DNA of 64,000 nt from Candidatus Iainarchaeum sp. (GCA_043816965.1 JBDRHK010000015.1:1-64000), one strand, 5' to 3'. Counted from the first letter of the stretch, positions 1-61,958 are shown. Numbers and translations are program-made. Notes: generated from the sequence alone by a model not told the origin.

Positions 1-141
1 ACAACTGAAGCGATGCATAAATATGTCACAGAAAGCCAGCAAAAACACTGGAAAGCGGAAAAGCCGAAACCCGCGCAGACGACGCTGCTGCAGTTCAATT
101 GATTACAAAGACGCCTGCCGCTTCAGCGGCAGGTAGTTCAC
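1..141 (+). mobile_element. tnpA: Right end of an IS200/IS605-family element (3' end of tnpA plus RE hairpin), continuing beyond the window
   Basis: Frame 1 reads TTEAMHKYVTESQQKHW...QFN* (stop 100-102), like the C-terminal catalytic-Tyr helix of Y1 transposases; followed by hairpin CCTGCCGC-TTCA-GCGGCAGG (114-133) and TAGTTCAC (134-141), typical of IS200/605 right ends. Confidence 0.8.
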
Positions 142-748
142 AAACGATAATCAATTCGAACATATTTCCCCGTTGTTTAATATTTATTGGCGTACTTATA
201 AAAATCTCTTGAAAGATATTCCCAACATAGTCTATGAATTGTTTTGAAAAATGTAGCAATTCTTTTTTGTAATGTCCATCATATATTCTTACTTGCTCCT
301 CATTAAGATAACCGTCACCATAAATTACCCCCGCCAAATATGCCAATTTTGGATCAAGCAAGTTATTTTTGTCCAATGGAAATCTGATTACTTGGCCCTT
401 ATAATTCACTACGCAATTTGTGAATAGTTCTTCTGTTACATTTGAATCTTTTAGGTAAAGAGTTAAAGCTCTAAGCAGAGTTATTGGGAAAGTTTGTGAC
501 TTTATATATTGTTTCAATTTTACTGATTTAAGTAAAAAATTTGCATTTAGGTAATTTTTGTAAAAATTCCTGAACTCAAGATAGTCGTTTTTATTGCATT
601 GCTCAGAGATTATTCTTGCAGCTAAGAGGGATACCATCTTGAAACTTGACCTTAAAGTTGGATTCTTGTTAGTGGTACATGCGGCAATATTCAATTGGTT
701 GCCAATGAACTTGCTATTGTAAAATTTGTCATTTTCGAGTTTTATCAT
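142..748 (-). pseudogene. Free-standing LAGLIDADG endonuclease-like gene interrupted by the IS200 element
   Basis: Motif LAYLAGVIYGDG; probable start ATG at 748; after MFELIIV the frame runs into the IS end and no second LAGLIDADG motif is reached. Confidence 0.75.
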
Positions 749-786
749 AGTTGTATTAATTTGTTCTTTAGGAAATATATCGTCGT

Positions 787-810
787 TTCGGGACCTCCTT
801 TCCGGTGCGG
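787..810 (-). promoter_or_regulatory. 24-bp motif upstream of a LAGLIDADG gene, copy 1
   Basis: CCGCACCGGAAAGGAGGTCCCGAA on minus strand; matches 44591-44614 and 58007-58030. Confidence 0.65.
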
Positions 811-905
811 GATTCATGCTAAAATCACCATTACTGCCATTTCTGAAAACGCGGAAACTGAACACATCAAGAAAAACGAAACCGGAAGTAAAATGAAGAG
901 ACTCA

Positions 906-1028
906 TTACAAATCACTTCCGGATTTTGACAAGAGCCATATTTCCCTGTCCGTCAGTTCTTCTAAATTAGACTCTTTTAAAATCTCTAAACTTTGAATTT
1001 CTTTATTTGTTAAAAATGGAATTTTCAT
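906..1028 (-). CDS. Conserved 40-aa small protein, copy 1
   Basis: MKIPFLTNKEIQSLEILKESNLEELTDREIWLLSKSGSDL; RBS GGAGGTGA upstream; similar to ORF 57867-57998. Confidence 0.7.
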   Translation of the reverse strand: MKIPFLTNKEIQSLEILKESNLEELTDREIWLLSKSGSDL

Positions 1029-1196
1029 CAACCAAATCACCTCCTGGAAAGATGAATTTTTTCCGGAGCCGTCTTGCGGGTTTTGGAGGCATTAAATCCT
1101 TTGCACAAGTATGCTAATTTAAACGTGCAAAGGTTTAAGCCGAGAAAATCCGAGTCGTAGGAAAAAATTCCTCGAAGGAGGTGATTAATGAAAATT
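1020..1196 (-). repeat. Long imperfect inverted repeat / fold-back hairpin, copy 1
   Basis: Nested complementary blocks AATCACCTCC/GGAGGTGATT, GAATTTTTTC/GAAAAAATTC, CCTTTGCAC/GTGCAAAGG; homologous to 57694-57882. Confidence 0.85.
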
Positions 1197-1321
1197 TGTA
1201 TCTTTTTGATGGAATTCATGTCAACTAGGTTAACCTAACATTAATCATAAAATGCTCTGCAACGGGGGAGGCCAAGGGCAAATAAACTGGATTCTGTGAA
1301 GGACCGCGAACAAAAAGAGAA

Positions 1322-44647: not shown

Positions 44648-47107
44648 ATGGGTATTAAAGGACTTGATTGTAAAACAGAATATCATTGGTTTGATGAGCC
44701 AGATACTGTAAGAGTTAGATTAGAAAAAGAGCTCTGGGAAATATTTATAAATAAGGCAATTGCGAAGGCAGGCTCAAGAACCAGATTAGCAAATGCAACT
44801 GGACTATGCAAGGTAACTGTTTTCAATTATTTCCACAATATAAGTTTGACCGTAGGAGGGGTAAAGAAAATTCTTAATTTTTTAAACATTGATTACATGT
44901 CGGTTGAAGATAAAGTTAGGGAAATTGCTTGGACTAAAAACATTAAATTGCCAATAAAACTTAATACGCCATCTATGGCTACTATTTTAGCAGCAGTAAT
45001 TGGAGATGGAACTATTAGTGAAGTGCACGTAGAATATAAAAACAAGGATAGTGAGCTACTGAATAAAGTCGAGAAAGAAATAAAAAAGACTTTTGGAAAT
45101 GTTAAAATAGATCATAGAATTTCTGAGAAGGGCATTCCTTATATAGTTGCTAACAAAATTGTTAAAAGAGTTTTAATAAACGTTGGAGTGCCCGTTGGCA
45201 AAAAATTAAATAAAAATTCTGGAGTTCCAAAGATTATTGTGAATGGTTCAAAAAGAATGCAAAAAGCATTTATTCAGCAATTATTTGATGATGAAGGTTG
45301 GGTTGAAAACACCAATTATAAAATTGGATTATCGCAAGCCAATGAGTGTACTAATGCAATTAACAAAAAATTTTTTTCTGGAATGAAAATAAACAAGCCC
45401 TACAGCATAAATAAAATCCCCGAAGAAAATCGAAATAATGTTTTGCCTCCTCAACTCTTAACAGGCATAAGAAAAATCCTACATGAAAAATTTTTAGTCG
45501 AGTCCAATCTAAGGCTAAAAAGAATAATAAGGCGGAGAAAAGGATATGTTACTGCATTCTGGGAACTTAATGTGGGCAAGAAAGAATCATTATTAAACTT
45601 CAAAAATAGAATTGGATTTTATTGCAAGAGAAAAAGAAAAGACTTTGATTTAATGGTTGGATTAAGAGAAAGCATGGTTCCAAAAGACATTCTAAGTCAA
45701 ATATTTTACGAAGGAGCGAATCTTTCGAAGGAAAATGGGAGGTTTAAAGTTAAGGAAATATCCAAAAAGGTAAATCTCCACCCGTCCCGTATCAGGAAGA
45801 GGCTACAGACTCTCGTAAAAAGAGGTGTTTTTTATAAGAAAAATGGCGACTATGGCCTAAATCATAGTTATTTAATTAAAACCTTTTTTAACTCAACTAA
45901 TAGGGGTTTAATGCAAATAGGTTGTGTGGGTAAACCATCGAGTGGTAAGAGCACGTTTTTCAGTGCTGCAACACTTACTGATGTTGAAATTGATATGCGG
46001 CCATTCACAACTATCAAAGCTAATATTGGAACAGGATATATAACGACAAAATGCGTGCATGGGGAATTTGGCAAACAGTGCCAACCCCAGAATAGTAAAT
46101 GCGTAAATGGCATTAGACTCATACCAATTCAACTTTTAGATGTTGCAGGGCTAATTGAAGGTAGCTGGCAAGGTAAAGGACTTGGAAATTCTTTCATGTC
46201 GGATTTAATGCAAGCAAGTGCTTTAATCCATGTTTTGGATGTTGCCGGAATAACAGATGCGCAGGGCAATGTCTGTGGTTCAGGAACGCATGATCCGGCA
46301 GTTGACATTAAGTTTCTCGAGAGGGAGATTTCATATTGGATAAAAAGCATTTTAACAAAAAACTGGGCTAAAATAAGTAAACAATCCGGATTGAATGAGA
46401 AGGGTCCTGGAGTAGCATTGGCAAAACAGTTGAGCGGATTGGGAATAAGTGAAGATTGTGTGAATGATGTTTTGAAAGAAGGCAATTTCAGTGATAAGCC
46501 ATATTCATGGAACGAAGAAGAAATTTTGAGATTTAGCGGGCTGGTTAGGGATAAAAGCAAACCTTTGTTGATTGCTGCCAATAAGATAGATCTTGCTGGG
46601 GCGCGAGAAAAATATGAAAAAATAAAGAAAGAATTTCCAAATTATAAGATTTTTCCAACTTCCGGAGCGGCAGAGCTTGCATTAAGAAAAGCAGAGAGAA
46701 ATGGGATAATAAAGTATGTTCCAGGTGAAGATAAGTTCGAGATTGTAAAAGGAGATATTGATGAAAAGCAAAGGAAAGGATTAGATTTTATTCAGAAAAA
46801 TATCCTTGATAAATATGGTTCGACCGGGATACAGAACGTGTTAAATAAAACAGCATTTGAACTTTTGGATTTGATAGTAGTTTATCCTGTTGAGGACCAG
46901 AATAAGTGGACAAGTGGGCAGGGAAATATTCTCCCAGATGCTTATTTGTTGAAGAGAGGAAGTACTCCAAAAGATTTATCTGGCAAAATTCACAGTGATT
47001 TTATTGATAAGTATATTGGGTCAATAAATTGCAAAACAGGCCAAAAGATTTCTGAAAATTATAAACTGCAAAACAACGATGTTATCAAAATTATGCTCTC
47101 TCACTAA
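44648..47107 (+). CDS. ychF: LAGLIDADG endonuclease-like/HTH region fused in frame to a YchF/Ola1-type GTPase (GTPase part from 45911)
   Basis: ILAAVIGDG and FIQQLFDDEG; then MQIGCVGKPSSGKST, PFTTI, DVAGL, ANKID, TGS domain. Confidence 0.85.
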   Translation: MGIKGLDCKTEYHWFDEPDTVRVRLEKELWEIFINKAIAKAGSRTRLANATGLCKVTVFNYFHNISLTVGGVKKILNFLNIDYMSVEDKVREIAWTKNIKLPIKLNTPSMATILAAVIGDGTISEVHVEYKNKDSELLNKVEKEIKKTFGNVKIDHRISEKGIPYIVANKIVKRVLINVGVPVGKKLNKNSGVPKIIVNGSKRMQKAFIQQLFDDEGWVENTNYKIGLSQANECTNAINKKFFSGMKINKPYSINKIPEENRNNVLPPQLLTGIRKILHEKFLVESNLRLKRIIRRRKGYVTAFWELNVGKKESLLNFKNRIGFYCKRKRKDFDLMVGLRESMVPKDILSQIFYEGANLSKENGRFKVKEISKKVNLHPSRIRKRLQTLVKRGVFYKKNGDYGLNHSYLIKTFFNSTNRGLMQIGCVGKPSSGKSTFFSAATLTDVEIDMRPFTTIKANIGTGYITTKCVHGEFGKQCQPQNSKCVNGIRLIPIQLLDVAGLIEGSWQGKGLGNSFMSDLMQASALIHVLDVAGITDAQGNVCGSGTHDPAVDIKFLEREISYWIKSILTKNWAKISKQSGLNEKGPGVALAKQLSGLGISEDCVNDVLKEGNFSDKPYSWNEEEILRFSGLVRDKSKPLLIAANKIDLAGAREKYEKIKKEFPNYKIFPTSGAAELALRKAERNGIIKYVPGEDKFEIVKGDIDEKQRKGLDFIQKNILDKYGSTGIQNVLNKTAFELLDLIVVYPVEDQNKWTSGQGNILPDAYLLKRGSTPKDLSGKIHSDFIDKYIGSINCKTGQKISENYKLQNNDVIKIMLSH

Positions 47108-55975: not shown

Positions 55976-56078
55976 TAGGAATTACTTGCCTGAAAAGATT
56001 TAATAAAGAAATCATGCCTTACTGGAACGATTAACCGCAACATTAGGTTAATTAATTTGTTTATTTACTATTCTAACT

Positions 56079-57101
56079 ATGGCTGAGAAATCCAAATACC
56101 CGGATACCAATAAGATAGAGGTTCCCCGCAAGCTTATTGACCAGGTTATCGGGCAGGAATCTTCAGTGGAGCTTATCCGGAAAGCCGCCGCGCAAAAAAG
56201 AAATGTATTGCTTGTAGGCCTCCCAGGAACTGGAAAATCAATGCTTGCCCAGGCAATGTCTGAAATTCTGCCGATTCAGCGTTTGGTGGATGTCCTAATT
56301 TACCCCAATTCCGAGGATGCCAATACCCCGAAAGTGAGGGTTATGAGGGCAGGAGAGGGGCAGAAAGTTCTCCAACGGGCAAGGCTGGATGCAAAGGGCC
56401 AGGAAGACAATATTAGGCTGATGGGCCTGCTTCTCCCTTTGGGCTGGTTTATAATAACCTGGCTGATGTATGCTGTTTTTGGCTTAATGCATGTGAATGT
56501 TTATGCCGCAAGCCTTATTTTGGGCGGATTCCTTATAGTCGCACTTGCATTAGGGAGCCAGATGAAAATAAGGCAGGGAACAACAATCCCAAAACTCCTA
56601 ATTAACAATGCCGGAAAAAAGATTGCCCCTTTTATTGAGGCAACTGGTGCAAGGGCAGGTGCATTGCTAGGGGATGTAAGGCATGACCCGCTGCAATGTT
56701 TTTACGGCTTTAACGTGCTTTATTTACAAAAAGAAGATCAAAATGGATCTGAATTTGTAGAAAAACCATTTTTAGAGCTTTGGGAAGAAATGTACGAAAA
56801 GTATGGCAAAGAAGTTATACGAAACAGTAAAGGATACGAAGCAATAATGATTCCGCCTGAGGAAAAGATTTATACTTTGGGGCATAAAGATGGCAAGGTC
56901 ATTTTATCAAGAATACTTTCCCTTAACAGACAGCCTTTTGAGGGAGAGCTTGTTGAATTAAAAGTTGGAGATAAGACAGTTTCATTGACGCCAGAGCATA
57001 AAGTAGATACTGCAAAAGGCGACAAAGAGGCAGGTCAGATTTCTGAAAGAGACGGTTTGATTAAACTGGTTAAGGTTGAACTTGCCAAGATTCTCAGTTA
57101 G
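56079..57101 (+). CDS. lonB: LonB N-terminal part fused to split-intein N fragment
   Basis: LIDQVIGQ, GLPGTGKS, two TMs, GALLGDVRHDPLQ|CFYG...; stop after 134 intein residues. Confidence 0.93.
   Translation: MAEKSKYPDTNKIEVPRKLIDQVIGQESSVELIRKAAAQKRNVLLVGLPGTGKSMLAQAMSEILPIQRLVDVLIYPNSEDANTPKVRVMRAGEGQKVLQRARLDAKGQEDNIRLMGLLLPLGWFIITWLMYAVFGLMHVNVYAASLILGGFLIVALALGSQMKIRQGTTIPKLLINNAGKKIAPFIEATGARAGALLGDVRHDPLQCFYGFNVLYLQKEDQNGSEFVEKPFLELWEEMYEKYGKEVIRNSKGYEAIMIPPEEKIYTLGHKDGKVILSRILSLNRQPFEGELVELKVGDKTVSLTPEHKVDTAKGDKEAGQISERDGLIKLVKVELAKILS
56697..57098 (+). mobile_element. Split intein N fragment (134 aa)
   Basis: Cys1 directly after DPLQ; block B LTPEH (TxxH). Confidence 0.9.
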
Positions 57102-57154
57102 AGATATGCCCTATCTTGTTGATAAGGGGCAGCCTCCAGAAAATTAACGTTCAA

Positions 57155-57640
57155 TTAGGCTTCAACAAATTGCCCTGTTTCTAGATTTCTTTTGCATTTG
57201 TCCCAAGTATAAACTCTGCCATTCATTGCAATGTAAACGCCGTTCTCAAGGACATTTATAAGGCCAATTGCCACCCCGATATTAAATGAGGCATCTGAAT
57301 TAGAGAATTTTTCTGGCCTCATAGCGCCTGTCAAAATTATAACTTTATTAATATCGCTTAGATTTTTGGCAGTTTCAATCATTGTATCTGTTCCATGGGT
57401 AATTATAATTTTATCAGCATCTGCCTTTTGGCAAGCAGCATATATTTTCTACCTGTCTTTTTCTGTAATGTCTAGGCTATCTTTTTTGAGAACTGAGATC
57501 ACTTCAAAATCAAAGCAGGGATTTACTTTTTGCAGTATTCTTGTTACGGCAGGTTCAGCGATTTCAAAGGCATACCCATTTGTCGTTCTTGGATAGTCTT
57601 TATCAATTGTTCCCCCAGTTTGAATGAAAAATATCTTCAT
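57155..57640 (-). pseudogene. Short asparaginase-domain gene with one in-frame TAG (57449-57451)
   Basis: TGGTIDK, HGTDTM, LTGAMRP, SDASFN all in one frame; DR*KIY. Confidence 0.85.
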
Positions 57641-57693
57641 AGTATAACCAAGCAATAAAATAGTTTAAATAACATAGGATTCAAAGTAGGCCG

Positions 57694-57882
57694 TATTTTT
57701 AAAAAATTCACCACCTCCAATAGAGAATTTTTTCTAAGGACTCTGATTTTCTCGGCTTAAACCTTTGCACGCCTGATTTCTACTTTTGGTGCAAAGGATT
57801 TAATGCCTCCAAAATCAGCAGAGACGTCCACGAAAAAATTCATTATTCTTGGAGGTGGTTTGATTGATGAATTTTCAAAATA
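57694..57882 (+). repeat. Long imperfect inverted repeat / fold-back hairpin, copy 2
   Basis: CCACCTCCAA/TTGGAGGTGG, GAATTTTTTC/GAAAAAATTC, CTGATTTT/AAAATCAG, CCTTTGCAC/GTGCAAAGG. Confidence 0.85.
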
Positions 57883-57998
57883 TTCAACTTCCCACAAGGG
57901 GAGAGATAAGGATGGCTGAAGAACTAGCCAGGTCAAATCCGGAGAACCTGACAGACAGGGAACTCTGGATTCTGAAAGAGACAGTGGGTGATTTCTAA
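57867..57998 (+). CDS. Conserved 43-aa small protein, copy 2
   Basis: MNFQNIQLPTRGEIRMAEELARSNPENLTDRELWILKETVGDF; RBS GGAGGTG at 57851. Confidence 0.7.
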   Translation: MNFQNIQLPTRGEIRMAEELARSNPENLTDRELWILKETVGDF

Positions 57999-58006
57999 TG
58001 CTTTTC

Positions 58007-58030
58007 CCGCATCGGAAGCCTACTCCCAAA
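58007..58030 (+). promoter_or_regulatory. 24-bp motif upstream of a LAGLIDADG gene, copy 3
   Basis: CCGCATCGGAAGCCTACTCCCAAA followed by TTTATAAG. Confidence 0.65.
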
Positions 58031-58075
58031 ATAGTTTATAAGAGTGAAAAACAGAATTTTAACAGAAGGGCTATA

Positions 58076-59074
58076 ATGTTGATCACTGAACAAGACATAA
58101 TTAATACTTATTCACAAGAGGAACAATGCTCTTGTAGAAAATATGTTGAATACAAGGAACTAATGCGAGAGAATCCTTCTTTTGGTTATAAGCGTTGTGC
58201 AAAACTATTAGGCGTTTCTCAGGGCAGAGTAAGGTGGTGGCATACCAAAGGGGCAAAGAGAGCAGTTCCATTAGCCCTGAAGGCGGTTGAGAAACTTAAG
58301 AACGTTGGCATAATTCCATTTACTGAAGAGCACAAACACGCCAACGTAATTCTCAATATTTTAGGGACCCTTTTTGGAGATGGCGGAATTGACAGAAGGC
58401 TCAATACAGCGGCGTTCATCTCCTCAGACAAAAAGGATGTTGATTTATGGAAGAAAGATTTGCTCGAGGCATTTCCCTTTGCAAAAAACAAAATGAATCT
58501 TGTAGAAGGGGGAGAGTGGGGGCATTCATATAACATTAGGACTTTTGATAGGAGTATTATAAGATTCTTTGTTGCATTAGGAGCGCCAGTTGGGGATAAG
58601 GTTGCTATAAAATACAGTTTGCCAAACTACATTTTCAACGTATCCTACGAACATAGGATTGCATTTTTGGATGGTATGTTAGCATCAGAGGTCTCAGTTC
58701 CGAGATTTAGGGACGATTCTTACCAGAACAAGAGATTCACAGATTTCAGTTTAAGTTTATCAAAAATTGATACATTACAAGACGAGCATAGGCTTTTTAT
58801 GAGGAGTTTTGAAGATTTATTAAATTCTGTTGAAGTGGCCACAACAGGTAATCTGAGAAAAGATTTTCATCTAAAAAGAAAAAGAAAGGACGGTCATTTA
58901 AGTTCGCCTTACAGGATTTTCATTAGAACAATTTTTTGGAGAGTTTTATATTTCAACAATTTATTTCCTTTAAGGTACTGTCATGGCAAGAAAAAACGTC
59001 TGCAAAAAGAAATTGAATTTGCAGTAAACTACAAGCAGAAATCTGTTAAACGGGGATTGGAGAAATGCCTATGA
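58076..59074 (+). CDS. Free-standing LAGLIDADG homing endonuclease with N-terminal HTH
   Basis: GYKRCAKLLGVS HTH; ILGTLFGDG and FLDGMLASE; probable start MLITEQD. Confidence 0.88.
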   Translation: MLITEQDIINTYSQEEQCSCRKYVEYKELMRENPSFGYKRCAKLLGVSQGRVRWWHTKGAKRAVPLALKAVEKLKNVGIIPFTEEHKHANVILNILGTLFGDGGIDRRLNTAAFISSDKKDVDLWKKDLLEAFPFAKNKMNLVEGGEWGHSYNIRTFDRSIIRFFVALGAPVGDKVAIKYSLPNYIFNVSYEHRIAFLDGMLASEVSVPRFRDDSYQNKRFTDFSLSLSKIDTLQDEHRLFMRSFEDLLNSVEVATTGNLRKDFHLKRKRKDGHLSSPYRIFIRTIFWRVLYFNNLFPLRYCHGKKKRLQKEIEFAVNYKQKSVKRGLEKCL

Positions 59075-59184
59075 AATCTGTTTTAAAAATACTATTGGTG
59101 TTGGCTATACTTGCTGGTTTTATTTTTTTAGCATCCTATGTATTTGGTTTTATTAATATGCTTGTTTTTTCTACAATTTTCTAA
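59071..59184 (+). CDS. Small hydrophobic protein, 37 aa
   Basis: MKSVLKILLVLAILAGFIFLASYVFGFINMLVFSTIF; ATGA overlap with endonuclease stop; GGAG upstream. Confidence 0.45.
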   Translation: MKSVLKILLVLAILAGFIFLASYVFGFINMLVFSTIF

Positions 59185-59273
59185 CTGCGGCAAATCGAGT
59201 TGTAGAAATGTAATTTTATTGTGATATCCTTGCAATGCAAGATATTTAATAATATTGTAATTATTATCTATTT

Positions 59274-59396
59274 ATGGAACATAAATCAAAAACAGAGAGG
59301 GTTTCTTCAGTATCTAAGCGGCCTTTTAGGGGTCATGTCTATAATGTTACAACTGAAACAGGCAACCTCTTTGTTGAGGATGTTCTGGTTCACAAT
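59274..59396 (+). mobile_element. Split intein C fragment (41 aa)
   Basis: Block F VYNVTT..GN and block G VLVHN|S. Confidence 0.92.
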
Positions 59397-60695
59397 TCGG
59401 GCGGGTTGGGAACACCCCCTCACTTGCGTGTTGAGCCAGGAATGGTCCACAGGGTTAATGGAGGGGTTCTCTTTTTGGATGAGATTTCCACTCTCTCCCC
59501 AAAATCCCAGCAGGAATTGCTTACAGCAATGCAGGAAAAGAAATTCTCAATTACGGGCCAAAGCGAGATGAGTTCAGGTGCAATGACAAGGACAGAGCCG
59601 GTTCCATGCGATTTTGTCCTTATTGCCGCAGGGAATTACAATGATTTGAGAAAAGTTCATCCTGCACTTAGGAGCAGGATAAGGGGCTATGGTTATGAGG
59701 TCTATATGAACCTTGAAATGGAAGACAATGAGGAGAACAGGAAAAAGATTGTGCAGTTTATTGCGCAGGAAGTAACAAAGGATGCCAAAATCCCGCATTT
59801 CTCGGCAGATGCAATTGAGTCAATTATTTTCGAGGCAAGGAGAAGGGCAGGAAGGAAAAATAAACTCACCCTTAAGTTAAGGGATTTAGGCGGGCTGGTC
59901 AGGGCCGCAGGAGACATTGCAAAGGAAAAAGGCCATGGCCTGGTTGACGCACAGGATGTTCTCGAGGCAAAGATGTCGGCAAGAACCCTGGAACAGCAGA
60001 TGGTTAACAAAATTATTGATGAAAAGAAGGATTATGATGTTTACCTTTTTGAGGGAAGTGCCATTGGGAGGGTTAACGGCCTTGCGGTTTCAGCAGACGG
60101 GGATGCGGGGCTCATCCTGCCCATAGAGGCAGAAGTTGCCCCTGCCCAGAGCAGTGCTGAAGGCAAGCTAATTGCAACCGGAAAGCTTGGGGAGATAGCA
60201 AAGGAAGCTGTGCAGAATGTCTCCGCAATAATAAAGAAATTGAGCGGAAAAGACATTGCCAGCCATGACCTCCATATTCAGTTCCTCCAAACCTACTCAG
60301 GTGTTGAGGGCGACAGCGCGTCAGTTAGTGTTGCAACAGCGGTGATTTCCGCGCTTGAGGGAATTCCTGTAAAGCAGAGCCTTGCAATGACCGGTTCTTT
60401 AAGTGTCAGGGGAGAGGTTCTGCCAGTGGGAGGTGTTACGGCGAAAGTTTCAGCTGCAATCTTTGCTGGATTTAAGGAAGTAATTGTCCCATATGCAAAT
60501 AAGGACGATATTATTCTTCACAAAGAACGCCTGGATAAAATAAAAGTAATTCCCGCAAAAAACCTTTCCGATGTCCTGGAAAATGCATTTGAAAAATCCC
60601 CTAAAAAGAAAAAGTTCATGACCTCCTTGAAAAAACTGCTTCACATCGAACTTTCAAATGTAGTGGAAAAAGTGATTCCCAAAACAGTGGCATGA
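59274..60695 (+). CDS. lonB: Split-intein C fragment fused to LonB C-terminal part
   Basis: [44 protein letters not shown]. Confidence 0.95.
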
Positions 60696-61958
60696 TTAAA
60701 CAATCTGAATTCTTCCGTCGCGGAAAATGAACTCTTTTTTATTAAGTTGGAAATCCTTTTTTGAGCCAAAGCCCTTTACGGCAATTGAATTTTTTGCCTT
60801 TTCAATTTCCCCCACCTTTCCAACCCATTTTCCATCTTTATTGTAAACAGGAAGGCCAATCATCAGTTTTGTGATTTTATCCCTGACCTCAAATACGCCG
60901 GATGCCCAGGTGACTATTAGCGCAACAACAAAGCTTGCAAAGGCGCTCAGGATAAACACATACAAATCTATGTTTTGTATAATAACATGCTTGCCTGCTT
61001 CAAGGACAAAAAGAATCAGAAGCACATAAATCCCGCTGAGGAAATATGTTCTTAAGTAGAACGCCTTCTTGAGGTGAATGGCGTCTATTGCCCTGCCAAT
61101 AAGAAAAACAATTATTGCAAGTGCGCCGAACTCCATAAGCCCGCCCAAACCATTGGCCGCATTATTAACCACATTATCCGTAACCCCTGCAGAATAGTAC
61201 TCGAATAACGCCGTTATAAATTTCGGGTATGCGGTAATGCCCCCGAAGACAAAAAGCAGAAGCACAACAACATATGCAAATACTGAGGTCCTTTGGAGGG
61301 AAAAACTCCTTGCGAAAGAGACCACAAATTTCTCAATTTTTTCCTCAAGCCCAAGCCCCCTCAGAATTGCGTAAAGGCCGACAATGGCTGCAATTATCAT
61401 GATAAAAAGTTCCTGCCTCCCTATCGCATAGAGGATTGCCCCAAAAAGAATTATTATCCCCGGGATGAGAAAGAAAATCCTCGCAAGTGCAGGGTCCTTT
61501 AAGGCGGCCTTTATTGTGTAATATGTGGATTCCACCTGCTTTGCCTGCTTTATTATCAGGATCTCTTTGGAAATTATCGGGAGCCTGCTTTGCAAAATCG
61601 GAATAACCTGGTCATCTTCCGCGCCATCAGTAACCAGGACAAAGCCATCGGCGGGAAAATTCTCCAACACCTTGTCAATCTGCTGATTAATCTTCTTGTC
61701 TGACTCATAATCTGTTTTACCATGCCCTGTAAGGGTCACAATTTCCGCAGCGGCAGAATGCTTCTTTACCTCGTCAAATTTCTTAACCGCGGCAAAAATG
61801 CTGTTTACATCACTATCGGAAGGGTCCTTTATCGCGAGTTTTGCGGCGGCATTAATGTTTGCCTTTCTCCCCAATATCGGGCCGGTAATTCCTGCCTTTA
61901 TCCCGAGGTCGTTGTCCCTATCAACACATACTACGAGAATATTGTTCAGTTCAGCCAT
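60696..61958 (-). CDS. DUF373-family membrane protein with PRC-barrel-like tail
   Basis: LVVCVDRDND.G.K, DSD.N, VTDGAED, IKQ...VESTYY. Confidence 0.8.
   Translation of the reverse strand: MAELNNILVVCVDRDNDLGIKAGITGPILGRKANINAAAKLAIKDPSDSDVNSIFAAVKKFDEVKKHSAAAEIVTLTGHGKTDYESDKKINQQIDKVLENFPADGFVLVTDGAEDDQVIPILQSRLPIISKEILIIKQAKQVESTYYTIKAALKDPALARIFFLIPGIIILFGAILYAIGRQELFIMIIAAIVGLYAILRGLGLEEKIEKFVVSFARSFSLQRTSVFAYVVVLLLFVFGGITAYPKFITALFEYYSAGVTDNVVNNAANGLGGLMEFGALAIIVFLIGRAIDAIHLKKAFYLRTYFLSGIYVLLILFVLEAGKHVIIQNIDLYVFILSAFASFVVALIVTWASGVFEVRDKITKLMIGLPVYNKDGKWVGKVGEIEKAKNSIAVKGFGSKKDFQLNKKEFIFRDGRIQIV

Follow-up and report, generated by a model that had tools for sequence, protein, structure and literature searches.

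To our knowledge, few natural split inteins are known, and split inteins are prized as protein-ligation tools. Among DPANN archaea, Nanoarchaeum equitans reportedly uses one to make an essential enzyme, PolB, from two genes; Choi et al. are said to have described this in 2006, with the two halves far apart and without an endonuclease. The available part of PMC4760082 lists LonB with 10 inteins in Euryarchaeota, and the accessible text on 'fractured genes' (Dassa et al. 2009, PMC2677866) describes an N-half, an endonuclease and a C-half that follow each other on one strand. Here we analysed a stretch of 64,000 nt from Candidatus Iainarchaeum sp. (GCA_043816965.1 JBDRHK010000015.1:1-64000; the window in what follows), whose lonB gene has this same layout. 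We consider it highly likely that this gene, the only lonB found in this DPANN (Iainarchaeota-type) archaeon, carries a genuine naturally split intein in the 'fractured gene' arrangement, and LonB would very probably be joined after translation by trans-splicing.

The gene consists of two open reading frames (ORFs) on the plus strand, ORF1 (56079-57101, 340 aa) and ORF2 (59274-60695, 473 aa), with a gap of 2172 nt between them (57102-59273). ORF1 runs to DVRHDPLQ, continues with a Cys and 133 further residues including TPEH, and ends at a TAG stop. ORF2 has its own ATG and encodes Met plus 40 residues up to VLVHN, followed by SGGLGTPPH. An earlier note on this DNA had described a 134-aa tail behind DVRHDPLQ and, 2.17 kb downstream, a second ORF with its own Met and 41 aa ahead of SGGLGTPPH; coordinates and translations agree with both descriptions. 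We call the tail of ORF1 IntN, the head of ORF2 IntC and the host parts N-extein and C-extein. Against the NCBIfam model of LonB (TIGR00764), ORF1 matched positions 3-196 with 189 bits and ORF2 positions 189-607 with 642 bits, the latter passing the cut-off of 516.6 alone; jointly the two span positions 3-607, an archaeal LonB match above the curated cut-off. The translation of ORF1 contains Walker A (GLPGTGKS) and two hydrophobic helices; Walker B (VLFLDE), the LID domain of LonB and Lon_C, with its serine in GDSAS, are found in that of ORF2. Pfam placed the Mg-chelatase/AAA P-loop in ORF1 and the AAA Walker-B part, LonB_AAA-LID and Lon_C (E 7.7e-33) in ORF2, so that translations and Pfam both bear out the claim that Walker A with the membrane anchor and Walker B with the Ser-Lys protease sit in separate halves. 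Joined together, the exteins (618 + 1299 nt) have the lengths of both parts of an uninterrupted lonB in a genome of the same genus (G001), with amino-acid identities of 91% for the N part and 93% for the C part. The G001 gene reads uninterrupted through the insertion site, and removal of the intein restores a host protein colinear with it, including the continuous HDPLQ-SGGLGTP motif that the earlier note had put together.

Comparison of the two intein parts with their relatives showed the residues expected of an active intein in nearly all family members. An alignment of the window IntN with eight split and two contiguous relatives (A1) served as the source of an IntN profile. Among structures in the Protein Data Bank, this profile matched the MJ0781 KlbA intein (2jmz, E 4.9e-11), three VMA inteins (E 5e-7 to 6e-6), Pho RadA (4.7e-4) and PI-PkoII (4.9e-4); the solved-intein entries matched include 7qst (E 5.3e-7), 4e2u and 2cw7. 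T98, P99 and H101 of the block B motif TPEH are invariant in A1, and the motif is kept in 30 of 31 family members, of which 18 have Cys and 13 Ser as intein residue 1. At the other end, the terminal intein residue is Asn in 69/69 family members and position +1 is Ser in 77/77, while the penultimate residue is His in 43/69 and Lys, Ser or Cys in the remaining 26. IntC is 63-78% identical across nine relatives (alignment A2) and mostly 39-44 aa long among 69 loci. IntN ends ~33 aa past TPEH and IntC starts 41 aa ahead of the junction; in contiguous relatives, the endonuclease domain fills exactly the interval that is missing between the two. The candidate new split-intein pair proposed in the earlier note therefore stands as far as the halves are concerned (matches to solved inteins, Cys1, TPEH and HN ahead of Ser+1), but not as a single case, as it belongs to a family that extends across DPANN.

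IntN and IntC are also predicted to associate. The model of their complex reached a docking score of 0.76 (best of three controls, 0.00), with at least 91% of contacts shared between runs and a partner pLDDT (predicted local distance difference test) of at least 75. In the calibration of this mark, it was reached by 116/157 solved complexes and 2/215 mismatched pairs. Since structures of split-intein complexes are available, this result may indicate resemblance to them and not binding of these particular copies. Tight docking would also be expected if the intein halves held the LonB fragments together non-covalently, giving a two-chain enzyme with no peptide bond between the chains. The available part of PMC3045599 provides a precedent, a fragmented phage ribonucleotide reductase held together by interaction domains that stem from a mobile element, and the replacement of the penultimate His in 26/69 members would be in line with a two-chain LonB. 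However, residues that serve only the chemistry are kept throughout the family (Cys or Ser at position 1 in 31/31, and TPEH, Asn and Ser+1 as counted above), and a 175-aa Hint domain would stay in the strictly conserved AAA+ loop between Walker A and Walker B. We regard such a two-chain LonB as unlikely.

As a separate observation on these sequences, MAFFT paired the second half of IntN (SRILSLNRQPFEGELVELK) with IntC when a contiguous mini-intein was aligned together with both halves (A7). The pseudo-two-fold repeat inside the Hint fold can be seen in the sequences of this family. A7 itself was unusable for folding because of this pairing, and was set aside.

The same break recurs widely. LonB was matched in all 41 genomes of the order (the source genome, G000, included): 28 are intein-free, two contiguous, six in two pieces (G000, G012, G013, G018, G025 and G040), four in three pieces (G002, G010, G027 and G036, which have the split described here and a second split intein at PVP/CDF) and one is a fragment. 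The HDPLQ site is thus split in 10/41 genomes. The IntC-plus-junction alignment was also used to scan public genomes, one for each species, and 224 stretches were confirmed. Among the best 80, which were examined, 76 are split, with a short ORF initiated at IntC, two are contiguous and two have an N-half only. A comparison with related lonB genes, suggested in the earlier note, has therefore found the same break many times over. The best 80 loci come from Candidatus Iainarchaeum/Diapherotrites, Micrarchaeota and Woesearchaeota/Nanoarchaeia metagenome-assembled genomes (MAGs), plus two contigs in bacterial bins. The latter (L045 and L048, filed in a Chloroflexi bin and a Falkowbacteria bin) carry split lonB in typical DPANN sequence, and their labels probably reflect mis-binning.

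Within a tblastn subset of 45 split loci with at least 5.5 kb of upstream sequence, the N-half lies upstream on the same strand in 35, with the endonuclease between the halves in 24 and without it in 11; no N-half was found within the locus in the other 10. The endonuclease lies upstream of the C-half in 36/76 split loci, and 466 to 5709 nt separate the end of the N-extein from the start of IntC. With IntN as query against 5.8 billion proteins (length window, 187-595 aa), 49 matches were obtained, the query itself included, most of them 330-365 aa long and thus of N-half size. The names on them, where given, were 'ATP-binding protein', 'Lon-like ATP-dependent protease' and 'hypothetical protein'. 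Because public records give the halves only such generic names, LonB may be scored as missing or truncated in DPANN surveys.

This recurrence bears on the possibility that foreign DNA was chimerically joined, during assembly, into a contiguous intein-bearing lonB. The source MAG (1.34 Mb, 86% complete) is indeed fragmented into 109 contigs, and no public contig runs across the whole gap. However, the order N-half, hairpin, small ORF, endonuclease and C-half is found again in independent assemblies of other studies, the N-half lies upstream on the same strand in the 35 of 45 loci just mentioned, and short public contigs are 100% identical to the window in several places, among them the extein/IntN boundary (56668-56832) and the spacer (59094-59251), from runs that may include the source sample. 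We consider a chimera extremely unlikely. Misassembly had been named as a danger in the earlier note, and the finding of this arrangement in many independently assembled genomes speaks against it.

Expression signals and substitution patterns are consistent with two functional halves. As saturated synonymous sites mostly prevent true dN/dS estimates, we used the proportions of non-synonymous (pN) and synonymous (pS) differences. Relative to the nearest relatives, pS was saturated (0.69-0.88), and pN was 0.16-0.28 for IntN, 0.125-0.14 for IntC and 0.24-0.26 for both the endonuclease and the N-extein. As pN of the intein halves and of the endonuclease does not exceed that of the N-extein, the halves are at least as constrained as the host protein. 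In line with these values, the window IntN is up to 73-75% identical to that of L064, and the N-extein 63-67% to its best relatives. The split state appears to be maintained by selection and not to be a recent lesion.

Upstream of the start of the IntC ORF, an NTTTAA box is present at −38 to −24 in 43/69 loci, versus 6/69 in a longer control zone (−80 to −45), and the aligned upstream regions show a conserved CCTATTTAATAATTTT. A Shine-Dalgarno-like word precedes the IntC ORF in only 11/69 loci, and none follows the TATA-like box of the window. A TATA-like box ~30 nt before the start without a Shine-Dalgarno sequence is the pattern of an archaeal promoter with leaderless mRNA. As no Shine-Dalgarno sequence lies between this box and the ORF2 ATG, the C-half is probably expressed from its own promoter as a leaderless mRNA. 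ORF1 has a box, TTAATTAA, ~31 nt upstream of its ATG (judged by eye). A scan for bacterial-type promoters and terminators gave counts at the level of shuffled sequence, with models that are not applicable to archaeal promoters.

These features also have to be weighed against decay, in which a contiguous intein would have been broken up, lonB killed by stops and an insertion, and the ORFs left as pseudogene remnants. An obvious pseudogene, the asparaginase-like ORF with its in-frame TAG, does lie in the spacer, DPANN genomes are reduced and the intein is dispensable in G001. Decay would, however, have to leave exteins that are full length, 91-93% identical to the intact congener and free of frameshifts and stops. 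It would also have to yield the same break points in different families and phyla, with little non-synonymous change, and to spare a conserved promoter box before the C-half. Moreover, no other lonB was found in the genome, yet all 41 relatives have a LonB match. We therefore judge decay to be very unlikely. An intact lonB elsewhere, which the earlier note had mentioned as a possible objection, was looked for in the 86%-complete genome and not found. None of the three rival explanations, a two-chain LonB, a chimera and decay, fits the conserved chemistry residues, the intact exteins and the recurrence in independent assemblies.

Several points weigh against a functional split intein. A search of the halves for a Hint domain, an idea of the earlier note, succeeded with the A1 profile against solved inteins, but Pfam gave no match at E <= 0.01. 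Since Pfam Intein_splicing reaches only E 0.01, short of the cut-off, even for a contiguous mini-intein relative, the LonB split-intein family appears divergent from the Pfam model. Block F of IntC has an Asn (VYN) at a position where many inteins carry Asp. Charge complementarity of the DnaE type was not seen at the level of whole domains: IntN is net negative in 10/31 members, with a mean charge of +1.5, and in IntC a consistently basic character is confined to the first 20 residues. Because G001 does without the intein, the split is not needed for LonB function, and as the genome is an 86%-complete MAG, a second lonB may exist elsewhere. Contigs from public runs that match the window are short, with none across the gap between ORF1 and ORF2, and the best run contains at most 12% of the sampled words. 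Finally, the spliced product itself is predicted from sequence and models.

Overall, we favour a model of trans-splicing, in which we infer expression of both halves, splicing and endonuclease activity. ORF1 would give a membrane-anchored polypeptide with Walker A and two transmembrane helices that ends in the 134-aa IntN on the cytoplasmic side, and ORF2, transcribed from its own promoter, would give the 41-aa IntC followed by Walker B, LID and protease domain. IntN and IntC would then come together as a single Hint fold on the cytoplasmic side of the membrane and follow the class-1 pathway, in which an acyl shift at Cys1 precedes transesterification to Ser+1, and the terminal Asn then cyclises before the O-N shift. 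The product would be full-length LonB, with ...HDPLQ joined to SGGLGTP... in the native loop between Walker A and Walker B. We read the 2.2-kb spacer as a selfish cassette made up of a structured leader, the 43-aa ORF, the LAGLIDADG endonuclease and a passenger asparaginase-like pseudogene. Its endonuclease probably cuts intein-free lonB alleles, upon which the whole cassette would be copied in. Such endonuclease-driven spread would fit the difference in intein presence within one genus as well as the better conservation of IntN than of the N-extein.

Table 1. Features of the split lonB locus, with positions counted from the first nucleotide of the window.
Feature	Positions	Strand	Evidence
LonB N-extein, 206 aa, Walker A and two-helix membrane anchor, ends ...RHDPLQ	56079..56696	+	TIGR00764 3-196; G001 colinearity
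IntN, 134 aa and TAG stop, Cys1, block B TPEH, stops shortly past last N-domain strand	56697..57101	+	Alignment A1; profile matches to solved inteins
Asparaginase-like ORF, ~166 codons, one in-frame TAG	57155..57655	-	Pfam Asparaginase_N
Conserved 148-nt extended hairpin	57711..57858	+	Folding energy, covariation, covariance model
43-aa ORF	57867..57998	+	Same small ORF after all 8 hairpin copies
Free-standing two-motif LAGLIDADG homing-endonuclease gene, 358 aa from first ATG	57998..59074	+	NCBIfam, alignment A3, model
37-aa hydrophobic ORF	59071..59184	+	Translation
TATA-like box TATTTAATAAT, starts at -30 from ORF2 ATG	59243..59253	+	Positional conservation
IntC, 41 aa, own Met, blocks F/G	59274..59396	+	Alignment A2; family residue counts
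LonB C-extein, 432 aa and stop, Ser+1, Walker B, LID, Lon_C Ser-Lys protease	59397..60695	+	TIGR00764 189-607; Pfam; G001 colinearity

On the contents of the gap the earlier note was silent. The minus strand carries an asparaginase-like ORF, and the plus strand a structured element, the 43-aa ORF and a LAGLIDADG gene (Table 1). The conserved core of the endonuclease starts at 58076 and contains the motifs LGTLFGDGG and AFLDGMLASE. The NCBIfam match (E 6e-17) is to the RtcB intein, in its endonuclease part; Pfam gave no LAGLIDADG match at E <= 0.01. GDGG (D102) and E205 are invariant in an alignment of 18 sequences (A3). The AlphaFold model has a pLDDT of 94.2, and its best Foldseek matches are I-Tsp061I, I-DmoI, PI-SceI and PI-PfuI (probability 1.00), with the TliVMA intein also matched. 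With two LAGLIDADG helices that each close with an acidic residue and a predicted alpha-beta-beta-alpha-beta-beta-alpha fold, the spacer ORF qualifies as a monomeric two-motif LAGLIDADG homing endonuclease. A 215-nt contig from a metatranscriptome of groundwater (run X4) matches 58220-58433 within this gene with full identity, which is a weak hint of its transcription, with DNA carry-over being possible. Elsewhere in the window (44648-45950, plus strand), a LAGLIDADG part is fused to an Obg-like GTPase; it is 25% identical to the lonB-spacer endonuclease over 114 aa (E 2e-4) and thus appears to be only a distant relative.

The asparaginase-like ORF has TGGTI and HGTDT motifs and a single in-frame TAG at 57449-57451, with no other stop. 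TAG acts as an ordinary stop here, as it ends 13 of the 43 long ORFs in the window. The 3' piece matches Pfam Asparaginase_N (E 1.8e-7). The ORF is the only copy in G000, and it was found neither in G001 nor in any other lonB spacer examined; we classify it as cargo or a pseudogene in the spacer. Between the endonuclease and the C-half, the ATG of the 37-aa hydrophobic ORF overlaps the endonuclease stop (ATGA). This ORF has no Pfam match and may encode a co-translated small membrane peptide. No Rfam family matches 56000-60800 at E <= 0.1, and therefore no known intron or ribozyme explains the gap. A 36-nt repeat (57021-57056 and 57950-57985) was considered as a duplicated IntN tail and rejected as chance, since the second copy belongs to the conserved small ORF and is read in another frame there. 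The neighbours of lonB are the same as in G001: upstream a gene for a metallo-beta-lactamase-fold protein and downstream one for a membrane protein, each on the minus strand.

The hairpin ahead of the endonuclease is strongly structured. Its minimum free energy is -60 kcal/mol, compared with -30.9 +/- 3.9 for shuffled sequences (z -7.5), of which 0/200 were as stable. Its DNA is 84% identical to that of L057, versus ~68-72% for adjacent coding DNA, and among 11 sequences, 16 of the 42 consensus pairs show compensatory changes. The 3' arm contains GGAGGTG just ahead of the ATG at 57867. The 43-aa ORF that starts there (...ENLTDRELWILKETVGDF; LTDRELWILK) has a TAA stop that overlaps the endonuclease ATG (TAATG), and differs from its counterpart in L036 by synonymous changes. 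It has no Pfam match; in a large protein database, eight small proteins were found, the query included, all without names.

A covariance model (R1) detected eight copies of the hairpin in G000, with 123-143 bits on one strand versus 44-54 on the other. Besides the copy in the lonB spacer, these lie at 1037-1184 of the window (minus strand) and on contigs C5, C7, C25, C26, C66 and C86 (L119-L124). Behind each of the eight lies the same small ORF, and next to it a larger ORF that differs from copy to copy; several of these larger ORFs have LAGLIDADG motifs. The element occurs in 9/41 genomes of the order at E <= 1e-5, and in G036 it lies inside the lonB spacer. The copy at 1037-1184 belongs to a second full cassette (95-1213, minus strand) with a 44-aa ORF (906-1040) and a 273-aa LAGLIDADG-like ORF (95-916), for which Pfam LAGLIDADG_3 reaches only E 0.066. 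We read hairpin and 43-aa ORF as a putative common leader of free-standing homing-endonuclease cassettes. Phage homing-endonuclease genes are subject to translational control by burying the ribosome-binding site, and such burial by the hairpin would resemble this control. As the element is a palindrome, a role at the DNA level is also possible.

Contiguous inteins at the same site link the pieces of the window. G032 (L022) has a 496-aa contiguous intein at the identical LonB site, of which the N-domain is 27% identical to IntN and the middle 30% identical to the free ORF at 57998-59074 over its whole length; its end carries a YN.TTE.GN block. The cis inteins at this site in euryarchaeal LonB, of which the earlier note had spoken, are present in Pyrococcus kukulkanii (P0068) and Thermococcus zilligii (P0077). 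They lie between HDPFQ, followed by S or C as first intein residue, and KN/SGGLG, and each of their three parts (IntN, endonuclease, IntC) has its homologue in the ORFs of the window. A second, distant contiguous lineage at the LonB site is 428-429 aa long (L013, L100). In the unrooted IntN tree, the contiguous forms need three changes, two of them forced by supported branches, which may be either fissions or re-fusions.

Several relatives show other states of the gene. P0065 and P0071 encode N-extein, IntN and endonuclease as a single ORF of 676-703 aa that stops before IntC, a state with one break. In L056 (5707-5989), 282 nt separate the halves, with no endonuclease and with the 5' half of the hairpin element kept, which looks like the remnant of a lost cassette. 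In the three-piece loci L031 (G010), L032 (G027), L033 (G036) and L034 (G002), the middle ORF consists of IntC-1, 80 aa of LonB and an IntN-2 fused to an endonuclease, and the third ORF, which overlaps the stop codon of the middle one, has IntC-2 at its start. The N-pieces of L034 (1503-3968, G002) and of P0050-P0053 are ~800-820 aa long and have a further contiguous, LAGLIDADG-bearing intein near Walker A, which makes three inteins in one lonB. The states can be put in a series. It begins with contiguous inteins that include the endonuclease (Thermococcales, G032) and continues with a single break behind the endonuclease (P0065, P0071) and with two breaks and a free-standing endonuclease cassette (this window). 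Next come loss of the endonuclease (L056), dispersed halves (G018, where they lie on different contigs, and the 10 of 45 loci above) and a mini-intein (L075). We tentatively suggest that nearly every stage from a mobile contiguous to a fixed split intein might be preserved at the DPANN LonB site. The second break may have arisen by insertion of an undescribed mobile hairpin/43-aa leader that would drive, and perhaps throttle, many free LAGLIDADG genes.

The family is of interest beyond this locus. For protein ligation, its natural pairs run into the hundreds; they come from mesophilic archaea, have evolved together and combine Cys or Ser at position 1 with Ser at +1. The three-piece relatives add a second split pair in the same protein. 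An essential membrane-anchored quality-control protease appears to arise from two polypeptides that are joined across its ATPase site after translation, and a large part of DPANN appears to tolerate a split LonB. With intein-free, contiguous, once-broken, twice-broken and dispersed alleles at one site, the route from a mobile to a fixed split intein can be compared directly.

Natural split inteins and the fractured-gene layout are thus a known kind, of which the split LonB member is one without a description that we found; a search of open-access papers and bioRxiv, with supplements outside its scope, yielded no publication on a split LonB intein. Closest to the window in site and host protein are the contiguous LonB inteins of Thermococcales, which occupy the same position (HDPxQ/SGGLGTP) and share the LAGLIDADG motifs EEDI..TY, GYKK.AK.L, RWW and GDG and the C-domain motif YN.TTE.GN. 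Whereas these are one polypeptide that splices in cis, the window has three ORFs, extra DNA and a separate promoter for the C-half. In layout, the window corresponds to the fractured genes of PMC2677866, and its IntN (134 aa) and IntC (41 aa) are in or near the size ranges given in the available text of that paper (88-105 and 33-54 aa). The genes in that text come from ocean metagenomes with much viral sequence, their endonucleases form a new Vsr-like family, and the words 'LAGLIDADG' and 'protease' are absent from the text. In contrast, the window represents a cellular DPANN host, a membrane protease as target and a LAGLIDADG instead of a Vsr-like endonuclease, which is homologous to that of the contiguous inteins at the same site and preceded by a hairpin and small-ORF leader. 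Compared with PolB of N. equitans, the host protein is different and the site unrelated, the halves are only 2.2 kb apart and the endonuclease is retained. The cyanobacterial DnaE split inteins (Ssp, Npu), as covered in the accessible part of PMC4031507, are likewise broken at the point of endonuclease insertion, with an IntN of >100 aa and an IntC of ~36-41 aa, and like the LonB family they have kept the split over a large clade. Unlike DnaE as presented there, the LonB pair has Ser and not Cys at +1 and no clear opposite net charge of its halves, and intein-free, contiguous and split alleles of its host gene coexist in one order.

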